Sequence record: KM657822
Reading direction: 5' to 3' (one strand)
Length of the DNA: 64,000 nt
DNA from: Escherichia phage vB_EcoM-VpaE1
Both the position numbers and the translations under genes were made by a program. Of the stretch, positions 37,109 through 40,845 are shown piece by piece. Numbering within the stretch: position 1 is the first letter of the stretch; every line of letters starts with the position of its first letter. Below the pieces are notes generated by a model. The model was not told the origin of the DNA, made no database searches, and worked only from the letters and a program-made list of their open reading frames with translations.

Positions 37109-37665
37109 TTAGTGTACTTCAAGCCAATTCTTACCAACTTTACCAGTACCAGTTACAAGCGTTTCCTCCTTAAGCCCTAAGTTTCTTGATGCCTGACCAT
37201 ACATCCAGTCAATCACTGCTTTAACATCCTGTGTCATCTCTTCTGGGCACTCCCAACTATTCTCATCGTGGTATGCCAAAAGCAATCTAGCACCAATAGC
37301 TGGTTTTCGACCATTCAGCTTTGTAAGACCCTCTTCACAAGTTCTTCTACAAGCGAGGTTGATGGCTTCATTCTGAACCTGACTTTCCGAACCCATGAGC
37401 AGATAATTCAATAGCTTGTGTGGAGATTTACACCACAACCATGCACCAGCAACCTTTACAAAACCACCTTTAGAGATTGCAGCAGTCTTACCAAATACCT
37501 CTTCAAGAGCCTTCTTAGTGGCTTTGAAGTCTGCTTCTAAATTATCTATCAACTTCTTAATTTTAGGGAGGCGTACAAAGTATGTTTGCTTAGTTAAAGC
37601 ACCCTCCTCAGTTGTAGATGCTTTAATCGTCTTAGCAAATTTCTCATCGCCAGCCCCGAACAATA
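37109..37665 (-). CDS. DNA polymerase (family A) exon 2
   Basis: Begins with second half of motif B (LFGAGDEKFAK) and carries motif C (LLAYHDE); no ATG start. Confidence 0.7.
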
Positions 37666-37876
37666 CATCTGGTCAATACACTCGCAAGGTGTACCAGTTC
37701 TCTTATGAACTTCTCCGCATTTCTACGGAGTGTCGGACTATATCACGTAGCAGTGGTGCTACCGTTGCACTTGGGGATGGTCATTAGCTTACCACCCTAC
37801 TCTACTCAGTTCATACGTTAAGTATGCTTTTCGATAGTCTCTGAACGTTTCTCTGTTAGGAATCTCTATAGTTATG

Positions 37877-38113
37877 TTATTTGCTTAGGTAGTCAATTGC
37901 TCTTTGCATATTATCAACGCTATCTGCAAGCAACCCCAAAGCTCTGTTGCAATTGTGGCATAACATACCTCTTACCTTTCCGGTTTTGTGGTCATGGTCA
38001 ACAACAAGCTTAGCCTTGTGTCGTGAACCATTCATGATAAAACCTTCACCGCCACAAATTTGACATTTGTAATCACAGTTGCGGAGTAGAGTTTCGACCT
38101 CTTCTCTTTCCAA
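37877..38113 (-). CDS. intron-encoded HNH endonuclease domain
   Basis: CDYKCQICGG ... DHDHKTGKVRGMLCHNCNRALG HNH motif. Confidence 0.7.
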   Translation of the reverse strand: MEREEVETLLRNCDYKCQICGGEGFIMNGSRHKAKLVVDHDHKTGKVRGMLCHNCNRALGLLADSVDNMQRAIDYLSK

Positions 38114-38337
38114 GCCATATTATGTCCTTTCTCACCGCAATGTGATGAACAATAAACTTGCCTTGCTGTTCTCGGCATGAACACCTCCTCACAGCTAGGA
38201 CATTTCTTAGTAAGAACCCTGTGTTCTGCCCTTCTGTCAAATTTTAACACACAACTTCTGCACCGTTTTTGATTGTATTGGTACGGTTTAAACTCCGTGC
38301 CACACTCAGTGCATAATCTCTCTTCGTAACCTGCCAT
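38032..38337 (-). CDS. intron ORF N-terminal Zn-finger segment (possibly same gene as HNH via frameshift)
   Basis: ATG 38337 preceded by AAGGAGAGAG; Cys-rich (CTECG, CRSC, CPSC, CSSHC); overlaps HNH ORF in another frame. Confidence 0.4.
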   Translation of the reverse strand: MAGYEERLCTECGTEFKPYQYNQKRCRSCVLKFDRRAEHRVLTKKCPSCEEVFMPRTARQVYCSSHCGEKGHNMAWKEKRSKLYSATVITNVKFVAVKVLS

Positions 38338-38445
38338 TATCTCTCTCCTTTGTTTTAGGAGTCCTAACAGAGACTTCGCTGCTGATTACCATATCTTTAC
38401 AGACTTAGGCTTCCAGCAATTCACAACGTTTTACATGCGCCACTG

Positions 38446-40588
38446 ACGCATAAATGCCATTTTTGGCTTTCTTACGACCTTTGCTAATTTCTTGAAGAAG
38501 ATTTGTATCCTGAGTGGCTCGACAGGTCAAGATGTCTTCCTCTTTATTAAGGCTGAAGTAGATGCTATTTAAAGTATGCGCATCAGTTCCTGAGTACACT
38601 ACGTACAAGTCATTTTCCGAATCATAATGCAAATACTTGTCAATCTCTGGGTTTAGATACTGGTCAAAATGTTTGCAATAGTACCTGCCATCCTCTTGTT
38701 TGACGAACTCAACCTCTTCTTTACCCTCTGTTACTGCTTTAGTGAACTCTTTATCACCCATAAAGTTACACAGCAGTACAAGTTGCGCGCTATTCATATC
38801 TGCTGAAACAATATTAGTTCCTTCCTCACAAGTCCAAACCTCCCTCATAGGTGCTCCATAGACAGCAGCACCAGACGGTACGTTTACAATACCATATTGT
38901 GTCATACGTCCAGTTGAAGTACCAAACACCATTGCACCAGCACTAAGGCGACCATCAGGACGAATCTGGTTCAACCAACCTTTTTCATCATCCTTTGAGT
39001 TCTCAATAGTTCTGCGTCGGTGCATCAAAGTATAGTATTTCGCAATCTTCTGTCCAAGCTCACCTTCAATCGTATCATAGGATGATTCGGTAAGTTTTGG
39101 TGAAGTACGGATTAAGCAAGGTTCAAGCAAATCTGTGTACTTCTTAACAGACCAGTTATGCTCAATGTACTGTACACCTTCGTGCTCAACATAACTCAAA
39201 CCACACCGCTCGACCATTTCCTGCCACTTAGGATGCTTTGTAATCATCTTTTTATTGTCTTTGAAACGACAAACTTTGACAGGGCGACCGTCTGAGTCTT
39301 TCTTGTAGTTCCAGTCATCTGGAATCCAACCAACTGATTTCAAGTAGTCTTTAACAACTGCTACCTGAGTCATACGAGAAACTTCAAACTCAATTGGTGT
39401 ATATGGTGCATCAATCAAACCTGTGTAGCGACTTGACTCAAGTCCAAAGTGGTTAACAACGTGGCTGTTATAGTACTTCACAGTTTTGACTGTTTTTACT
39501 GGCTTCCAGTCTTTGCATTTCTTACCAATCTTTGCGTTCAACTCATTGCAAATTGCACGAGCATCCTTCATTGCTACAAAGCCTTCCTTGTACTCTTCAC
39601 CAGTTACAGAGTTGGTTGGTGTATAGCAATTTCTCTTTTCAATGTTAAAAATCTTTGTAGTTGGCTTACCAAATGGCTTGATTTCATATGTCTGCATCTC
39701 ACCGTTACGTACCTGCTGACGATACTTTGTCTTAGGATACTTGGTAATTCTTTTCAGTCCATCTGCATGACCAAATGTTTCAACATACTCATTCCAAGCT
39801 TTTGCAAACTCTTCTCCAGTGACTTTACCTTTGGTCTTAATAGTTGGAGGTAGATGTGGTTCAACCTCTGAAGCAAGCTCATTAGTCAACTTGTCAAGTT
39901 CCTTTACATGGAACTCCATAAGCTCTTTATCAGCTTTCCAACCATTGATAGCTTGTTGGCTCATCCAGAAAGATGTCTCTTTAGCTCGCATGTAAGTTTC
40001 ATAAGTGTCTATACCACACTTCTTAAGCTTGAGATATTCATTATCAAGTGCCCGTTTAGTTTTGGCGTTGATACGGATATCTTCTACAACACGAGTGAAG
40101 ATTTCTGCATTCCACACACCCCAATGTTCAATCTCTGGTTTACGAACACCAACACGAGCACCCCATGCAGCCAAACCATGAGCACCTTTATAGCCCTTTG
40201 GAGTTGGTCTATCCATCCACTGAACACGAGACTGGATAAGAGAATCCTGAAAGAAATTACTCCACGGTTTACACTTTGGATTATCAAAGTTCCATAAATC
40301 AGGTGCAATGTGATTGAAAACCCACCAGTCATAACCGAGACCATTATGGATGCAAAGACGTTTTGCCTTTAACGCAAACTCAATGCCTTCACGTAAGCCA
40401 CCCTTAATGTACTTGGTATACTTGTGACCGAGGATAGGCTCATCTGTAAAGACCCATACAGGCGGCTCTTCATCGTCAGATTTATAGTCTGCGAAAGCCA
40501 TTACGTGCACTTTAGTGAACTCAAGGAGTAAACCATCAGTTTCTGTATCACCAACTAAATGTAAGTTTTTAAAATCTACGTTTTCCAT
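38446..40588 (-). CDS. DNA polymerase (family A) exon 1: 3'-5' exonuclease and polymerase motif A
   Basis: Exo I VGDTETDGL; motif A VSADMNSAQLVLLCNFMG; first half of motif B GRKKAKNGIY; start ATG 40588 behind GAGGGAG. Confidence 0.8.
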
Positions 40589-40845
40589 TTTTACTCCCTC
40601 TAAAATCATTAACCTCATACATTACTGCAAAAAATTATAAAAAGCAAGTTGACAATGCACTTGACAAGGTGTTAATCTTTGCGAAGTGGGTTTTTACTTA
40701 AAAGGTTACTTAACAGTTTAACTATACAGATACTTTAAAACTCTTAAAAGATTATTTAATAGCTTTTAAAAAGCTTTAAAGTATAACGTATAGAATACGT
40801 TAAGATAAAAGATTAAAACTTAATAGTTACTTAAAAGAGGCTTAC

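Follow-up and report, generated by a model that had tools for sequence, protein, structure and literature searches.

The two overlapping reading frames found within the DNA polymerase gene of Escherichia phage vB_EcoM-VpaE1 are, very probably, what remains of a single gene for a homing endonuclease with an Endonuclease VII motif, which was recently inactivated by a deletion inside an otherwise intact intron. The preliminary description of this DNA, made from the letters of the window (the whole stretch of 64,000 nucleotides that was analysed, sequence record KM657822), had offered three alternatives: a homing endonuclease inactivated by a frameshift, a homing endonuclease made by a programmed frameshift, and two separate small proteins. 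The first of these is retained, given a 22-nt deletion as compared to a 483-nt ORF present in at least 36 records; a programmed frameshift is not supported and two separate genes are rejected, for the reasons given below. The case is one of ordinary decay of a selfish gene and not one of a frameshifting device. The coordinates of the two frames, here called ORF A and ORF B, and their overlap of 82 nt, as first described, were reproduced exactly by the ORF table and the sequence; these and the other features are collected in Table 1.

Table 1. Features of the polymerase gene, its intron and the endonuclease frames in the VpaE1 window
Feature	Coordinates	Strand	Details
DNA polymerase (family A), exon 1	38446..40588	minus	last exon base U 38446; weak Pfam DNA_pol_A match (ORF 38405..40618)
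DNA polymerase, exon 2	37109..37665	minus	Pfam DNA_pol_A model positions 218-380
Group I intron	37666..38445	minus	780 nt (relatives with intact ORF: 802-805 nt)
P6a stem, 5' arm	38362..38373	minus	TCTCTGTTAGGA; exact reverse complement of 37861..37850
P6a stem, 3' arm	37850..37861	minus	TCCTAACAGAGA; pairs with 38373..38362
Shine-Dalgarno sequence (GGAG) of the endonuclease gene	38345..38348	minus	7 nt upstream of ATG 38337; conserved in relatives
ORF A	38032..38337	minus	ATG start, 101 aa, eight Cys in four CxxC/CxxxC pairs (ORF table)
Native N-terminal part, codons 1-71	38125..38337	minus	ribbons C9/C12/C26/C29 and C46/C49/C63/C67, start of connecting helix
Deletion junction	38124..38125	minus	GAGAAAGG / ACATAATATGG; net -22 nt against every intact relative
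Out-of-frame tail of ORF A	38032..38124	minus	30 missense codons (HNMAWKEKRSKLYSATVITNVKFVAVKVLS) and TGA stop
Endonuclease VII-type nuclease domain, frame B	37877..38119	minus	open from 38119 after TAA 38122..38120; first possible start TTG 38113
ORF B	37877..38113	minus	TTG start, 78 aa (ORF table)

The intron and the split polymerase gene

VpaE1 is a Felixounavirus, that is, a Felix O1-like myovirus, and its 2-kb region considered here is 94–96% identical to that of Salmonella phage Sl26, Escherichia phages HK3 and JH2, and others. The paper that describes VpaE1 mentions neither an intron, nor homing, nor the polymerase gene. When the exon/intron junctions are set against ESh21 and Felix O1, whose alleles have no intron, the insertion point (marked by a slash) falls in motif B of the polymerase, ...RKKAKNGIYA/LLFGAGDEK.... 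The joining of exon 1 (U38446) to exon 2 (37665) gives ...KNGIYALLFGAGDEK..., with the peptide across the junction identical to that of the intron-less ESh21; in nucleotides, the predicted spliced junction reads ...TATGCGT/TATTGTTC.... At the intron site, the polymerase gene is uninterrupted in 205 of the 297 related records.

The true start of the polymerase is probably ATG 40588, which is preceded by GGGAG 7 nt upstream and fits the 2184-nt CDS annotated in relatives, whereas ATG 40618, with which the longest polymerase ORF begins, is without a Shine-Dalgarno sequence. The public records of this phage group contain the two polymerase exons as separate genes, with exon 1 ending at a stop inside the intron and exon 2 being listed as a separate "DNA polymerase" CDS of 184 aa with a TTG start at 37663; this start is artificial. 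Among the records viewed, a joined polymerase CDS is given for Yep-phi only. The leucine codon that is split by the intron (38446/37665 in VpaE1) is TTA in intron-containing alleles and CTG in intron-less ones, so that the former provides the U for the U·G pair of P1. Several flanking wobble positions also differ between the intron-containing and the intron-less alleles, as expected for co-conversion or target-site divergence.

The placement of the two frames inside an intron, already made in the preliminary description, is borne out by these junctions, which delimit a group I intron of 780 nt. Its P1 helix pairs exon AUGCGU (38451..38446) with intron GCGCAU (38440..38435), with the U·G pair at the splice site, and its end reads ...CCAGAUG, the last base being G at 37666. 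The group I identity rests on the score of an ORF-less orthologue, the intron of phage Mushroom, which yields a full-length match to Rfam RF00028 with 62.3 bits as compared to the gathering score of 50. In the window, the match to RF00028 (24 bits, the gathering score being 50) is limited to model positions 60–139, i.e. P3–P6, because the 461-nt ORF interrupts the model; with the gathering score applied, the Rfam scan of the whole window reported only tRNAs, the group I intron not being among the matches. The 23 tRNA genes seen in the Rfam scan are clustered at positions 1080–5914 on the plus strand of the window.

The part of the VpaE1 intron outside the ORF is the same as in Sl26 at 317 of 319 positions and the same as in Mushroom at 302 of 311. 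The endonuclease ORF, together with its Shine-Dalgarno sequence, makes up the loop of a 12-bp P6a stem, which the Rfam alignment places as an extension of P6 and which is kept in both the ORF-containing and the Mushroom-type introns. By its sequence, the ribozyme of the VpaE1 intron appears intact; splicing, which we infer to proceed in vivo, should therefore still yield the polymerase. An ORF of 38 aa on the plus strand (37705–37821), labelled "hypothetical protein" in Sl26, falls entirely within the intron's 3' ribozyme core; it is in all likelihood spurious.

The intact endonuclease of related phages

At the position of ORF A and ORF B, the phages Sl26, HK3, JH2 and EC6 possess a single ORF of 483 nt which encodes a protein of 160 aa annotated as "endonuclease VII". 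A tblastn search found the whole 160-aa protein in one piece in 36 records and in two or three pieces in just three, unannotated records. The comparison with intact homologues that the preliminary description had proposed as a check thus identifies VpaE1 as the frameshifted form of what is one uninterrupted ORF in at least 36 related records. The two VpaE1 halves are 97–99% identical at the protein level to the respective halves of the single 160-aa protein of relatives; hence, the arrangement of ORF A and ORF B is not a product of chance. Codons 1–71 of VpaE1 specify the same residues as in the Sl26 protein with a single exception (E51 for K). When orthologues of the type found in JH2, EC6 and FSL SP-010 are considered, the identity to the VpaE1 halves is 80–99%.

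In the 160-aa protein, a pair of zinc ribbons is followed by a connecting helix and then by a zinc-stabilised nuclease domain of the Endonuclease VII type (DHHRN, ββα-Me). In an alignment of 64 homologues, complete or near-complete conservation is seen for C46, C49, C63 and C67 of the second ribbon, for Y81, and for nine residues of the nuclease domain, namely, C99, C102, D121, H122, H124, R130, C134, C137 and N138, which are equivalent to C23, C26, D40, H41, H43, R54, C58, C61 and N62 of T4 Endo VII in an alignment with PDB entries (1e7d/1en7). The respective pattern, CX2-4C, DHDH, R and CX2C-N, defines the DHHRN family of homing endonucleases (Fang et al. 2018, PMC6083498). All its elements are found in ORF B of VpaE1 as CQIC, DHDH, KVRG and CHNCN (CX2-4C...DHDH...R...CX2C-N), with the zinc ligands C17, C20, C52 and C55 and the catalytic residues D39, H40, H42, R48 and N56 (ORF B numbering).

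Upon comparison with Pfam, ORF B matches PF02945 (Endonuclease_7) with E=4e-20 and 71.9 bits, the gathering cutoff being 23.6, and spans model positions 8–81 of 82, so that the domain is near-complete; the intact homologue scores 70.2 bits against the same model. For neither ORF B nor the intact homologue was any of the classical HNH families of Pfam reported at E<=0.1, PF02945 being the sole family reported. ORF A shows weak matches to NinG and zinc-ribbon families and nothing stronger in Pfam. The "complete HNH motif" that had initially been ascribed to ORF B thus stands inasmuch as all the catalytic and zinc-binding residues are there, but, as the PF02945 match indicates, they represent the Endo VII/DHHRN variant of the ββα-Me superfamily and not the classical HNH family of Pfam. 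The DHHRN/Endo VII type and the classical HNH type are members of this one superfamily, and the Endo VII motif is kept apart from HNH because the central Asn is missing (Fang et al. 2018, PMC6083498).

The AlphaFold model of an intact homologue (P0004, 98% identical; mean pLDDT 89.4) comprises two ribbon modules, a long helix formed by residues 65–81, and a ββα core with strands 118–122 and 129–134 and helix 135–143. With Foldseek, this model, which is that of an intact relative and not of the split VpaE1 products, matches Hpy99I and T4 Endo VII (3fc3, 2qnf, 1e7l, 1en7) with a probability of 1.00, and a sequence search of the PDB matched the same entries. The pN/pS ratio of the intact copies is 0.04 within the clade of Sl26, HK3 and JH2 and 0.15–0.19 in comparisons with EC6; as dS is saturated between the clades of Sl26 and EC6, these values are proportions only. 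Judging by these ratios, the intact ORF appears to be under strong purifying selection and, therefore, the intact gene is presumably functional.

All but one of the best 120 homologues with the nuclease domain have this domain joined, in one polypeptide, to one or more zinc ribbons. The exception is a mis-called gene: P0131, a nuclease-only protein of 91 aa, was considered as a naturally separate gene and rejected as an artefact of start-codon calling, its frame being open upstream through the zinc ribbon on contig L025. Related Endo VII-type ORFs, about 50% identical and without the first zinc ribbon, occur in polymerase-gene introns of T7-like and LUZ24-like podoviruses, namely, in Yersinia phage Yep-phi (L023), Pseudomonas phage LUZ24 (L024) and the Logan contig SRR21311706_46415 (L025). 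These introns also reside in motif B, albeit not at the identical codon (AKTF/IYGFLYGAG in Yep-phi versus ..IYA/LLFGAG in VpaE1). Such a distribution of sequences suggests that this lineage of endonucleases has switched among closely spaced insertion sites in phages of very different kinds.

A deletion of 22 nucleotides in VpaE1

In nucleotide alignments with relatives, the VpaE1 window, and it alone, has a gap of 22 nt directly 3' of ...GGTGAGAAAGG, the ORF region being 461 nt long as compared to 483 nt in the intact form. The deletion removed codons 72–80 (RVKNYYLRT) and shifted the frame. As a consequence, ORF A is composed of codons 1–71, 30 missense codons and a TGA stop, its tail being nuclease-domain DNA in the wrong frame. 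The rest of the gene, which is in the -1 frame and open only from 38119, makes up ORF B, for which TTG 38113 is the earliest possible start. The stretch shared by the two ORFs (38032..38113) is 82 nt long, with frame B being -1 relative to frame A. By the alignment, the simplest reading of the event would be a 25-nt deletion combined with a 3-nt ATA duplication. A clean deletion between AAG repeats (microhomology) was considered and rejected, as it predicts GAGAAAGAACATATGG where GAGAAAGGACATAATATGG is observed.

A query of 91 nt spanning the junction was covered by 11 records, all of which have 22 extra bases across it. The 27-mer of the junction has no exact match in IMG/VR. The 19-mer yielded 14 matches in metagenomes, none of them otherwise similar to the window; having no other similarity, they were judged to be chance matches and not true copies of the junction. 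Thus, the VpaE1 junction was found in no other phage record, viral contig or metagenome among those searched.

Since the junction is known from one assembly only, across all collections searched, one might suspect an artefact of sequencing or assembly, or else a mutation in a laboratory stock, the natural phage having an intact gene. We consider this very unlikely. The VpaE1 genome was Illumina-sequenced (VpaE1 paper), which makes a platform error of 22 nt improbable, as a 22-nt deletion with a 3-nt duplication is not the type of error that Illumina sequencing produces; besides, the flanks are clean and the region is non-repetitive. A mutation in a laboratory stock, for its part, would remain a real deletion allele.

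When the frame of the VpaE1 copy is corrected, its comparison with Sl26 shows nine synonymous and two non-synonymous changes, with no further stops or indels; as there is no other lesion outside the 22-nt site, the damage appears to be recent. In the model of the intact homologue P0004, the lost residues 72–80 fall inside the helix 65–81 that links the second ribbon to the nuclease domain, and the deletion takes nine of its 17 residues. Going by this model, the deletion would uncouple the ribbons from the nuclease domain.

Could the two frames still be of use?

The Shine-Dalgarno sequence that the preliminary description had assigned to ORF A is indeed there: GGAG lies 7 nt 5' of the ATG and forms an anti-SD duplex of -8.7 kcal/mol, with values of -7 or better being reached at 4.8% of background positions. 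The TTG start of ORF B at 38113 has a weak Shine-Dalgarno sequence of -5.3 kcal/mol at a spacing of 11 nt, with -5 or better being reached at 18% of background positions, and this sequence is better placed for the out-of-frame ATG 38118.

A functional endonuclease could, in principle, still be obtained if programmed -1 ribosomal frameshifting or transcriptional slippage fused ORF A to ORF B, and the geometry would suit such a fusion: the overlap measures 82 nt, the step from frame A to frame B is a -1 shift, and neither half has a further lesion. Nevertheless, we give this mechanism next to no credence. The slippery site that had been proposed as a check is absent: no X XXY YYZ heptamer occurs in frame A throughout ORF A, and the overlap contains no homopolymer of at least five nucleotides. 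Furthermore, frame B is closed by TAA 38122..38120, immediately followed by the conserved Y81-G82 and the first CxxC, so that a useful shift would have to fall in AAT ATG, roughly two codons, neither of them slippery, and the fused product would still be short of nine residues of helix 65–81. Finally, the two-frame arrangement is seen in none of the at least 36 relatives, in which the gene is in a single frame.

Another possibility is that each of the two ORFs now encodes a functional protein of its own, with the two products forming a split enzyme or the nuclease acting alone. In support of this, ORF A has a strong Shine-Dalgarno sequence and intact ribbons, ORF B has all the DHHRN residues, a near-complete domain and a TTG start, and both are annotated as genes in GenBank, ORF A as "hypothetical protein VpaE1_094" and ORF B as "endonuclease VII". 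This possibility, too, appears improbable, although somewhat less so than the other alternatives considered here. The split is seen in one genome only, there has been no time yet for selection on the split form, most of the connecting helix is gone, ORF A ends in 30 missense residues, and the TTG of ORF B is poorly served by its distant and weak Shine-Dalgarno sequence, so that a separate translation of ORF B, while possible, has little to support it. Moreover, no homologue was found to have the two domains encoded separately: the architecture in which an N-terminal non-catalytic domain and a C-terminal nuclease share a single polypeptide is found in at least 36 relatives, whereas in VpaE1 the domains are in different frames. 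The "two separate small proteins" of the preliminary description are thus contradicted by homologues in which the domains are fused, the reverse of genes that are always separate. In protein clusters, ORF A is a singleton among ~15 billion proteins, and ORF B belongs to a cluster of 77 members, of which those listed are mostly 160 aa long.

A bolder variant of the same idea, to which we attach only a very small probability, is that the deletion made a new functional arrangement instead of a dead gene. With its strong ribosome-binding site, ORF A might then supply a stand-alone ribbon protein that binds the motif B target in the polymerase gene and perhaps protects genomes that are intron-less or co-infecting, or else hinders related endonucleases. 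A further option is that this protein pairs non-covalently with a nuclease domain initiated at the TTG of ORF B, the two being the subunits of a homing endonuclease.

Probable decay of the endonuclease gene

Most likely, then, the endonuclease gene of VpaE1 is a recent pseudogene, the product of which we infer to have lost its activity. The following scenario can be envisaged. In the intact 160-aa protein, the two N-terminal zinc ribbons would recognise the target, and the protein would cut intron-less polymerase alleles in mixed infection, upon which the intron would be copied into them by repair; such a homing function of the intact Felixounavirus protein appears plausible from the analogy with F-CphI and further intron endonucleases. 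In VpaE1, the net loss of 22 nt has eliminated the greater part of the connecting helix and put the rest of the gene out of frame, so that the well-initiated ORF A would yield the zinc ribbons with 30 missense residues attached and the nuclease domain would be left without a good start signal. The VpaE1 copy of the intron would, in this case, no longer be able to promote its own spread. Against a complete loss, it can be argued that ORF B retains every catalytic and zinc-binding residue as well as an in-frame TTG with a weak Shine-Dalgarno sequence, so that some nuclease-domain protein may be made, and that ORF A, with its strong Shine-Dalgarno sequence and both ribbons, is probably expressed as a DNA-binding fragment.

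The polymerase intron is present in 95 phage records and falls into three size classes. The ORF-containing form (802–805 nt) is found in some 36–39 records, the Mushroom-type form (311 nt; L007:2188-2498 in Mushroom) in about 11 records, by difference, and the minimal form (268 nt; L022:424-691 in BPS17W1) in about 45 records. The Mushroom-type form retains the P6a stem together with the last codons and the stop of the ORF (AGCAAATAA) and, to judge by its sequence, looks like the scar of a deletion of the whole ORF between the imperfect direct repeats GACTCCTAAAACAAA and GACTACCTAAGCAAA. Among the intron copies found, the 780-nt intron of VpaE1 is the sole one with an internal lesion, and it is best read as an intermediate between the ORF-containing and the ORF-less copies of one intron. 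A cycle of gain, decay and loss is standard for homing endonuclease genes, and the VpaE1 lesion fits such a cycle.

Thus, a single genus offers a series that includes intron-less alleles (~205 records), an intact ORF, a freshly broken ORF (VpaE1), an ORF scar and a minimal intron, and this series lends itself to the study of how a homing endonuclease gene is gained, decays and is lost. Because the broken and the intact introns are nearly identical and differ only in the 22 nt, paired homing assays are possible. As to annotation, the proper entry for VpaE1_094 together with the 78-aa "endonuclease VII" is one pseudogene within a group I intron, and that for the two "DNA polymerase" CDSs of VpaE1 is one spliced gene.

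Comparison with known systems

This kind of element is already known, with published mentions of its orthologues; what is new, namely, the broken allele and the mis-annotation, is minor, and no new mechanism is involved. The orthologues in JH2, EC6 and FSL SP-010 have been named as putative intron-encoded homing endonucleases with the Endo VII motif (Fang et al. 2018, PMC6083498). They share with the VpaE1 gene the intron, the position in the P6a loop and the insertion site in the polymerase gene, but are intact ORFs of 160 aa, whereas the VpaE1 copy has a net internal deletion of 22 nt and is spread over two frames. The founding member of the DHHRN family is F-CphI of cyanophage S-PM2, the catalytic residues of which proved essential by mutagenesis (Fang et al. 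2018, PMC6083498). F-CphI shows 34% identity over 96% of the intact homologue, and the two have in common the C-terminal Endo VII motif (CX2-4C, DHDH, R, CX2C-N), the N-terminal non-catalytic part and the link to a group I intron. Unlike the VpaE1 gene, which is intron-encoded and located in a polymerase gene, F-CphI is free-standing beside the psbA intron, has psbA as its target, and is intact and active.

A parallel to the broken state might be the nrdB intron of phage T4: Eddy and Gold are said to have reported in 1991 that it carries a truncated I-TevIII as compared to the intact version in phage RB3. If so, the two cases would be alike in that splicing persists although the endonuclease ORF has been derived, by deletion, from one that is intact in relatives, and would differ in the endonuclease family, the host gene and the phage group. 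The catalytic fold and residues of the intact homologue are the same as those of T4 Endo VII and Hpy99I, but the former is a Holliday-junction resolvase and the latter a restriction enzyme; both have other accessory domains, and in T4 Endo VII the domain order is reversed, the nuclease being N-terminal.

Self-splicing group I introns with classical HNH endonucleases are also known from other phage polymerase genes, namely, those of SPO1 (I-HmuI), SP82 (I-HmuII), Bastille (I-BasI), ΦI/W31 (I-TslI) and Pf-WMP3 (I-PfoP3I) (PMC3428280). Like the VpaE1 intron, they interrupt a conserved motif of a family A polymerase and carry a ββα-Me ORF in a peripheral loop; the ORFs, however, are of the HNH sub-family and not of the Endo VII/DHHRN one. 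The sites of the HNH introns correspond to positions 674, 676 and 881 of E. coli Pol I (PMC3428280), whereas the VpaE1 intron, according to our own alignment, would be located in motif B, at about 763/764 in E. coli Pol I numbering.
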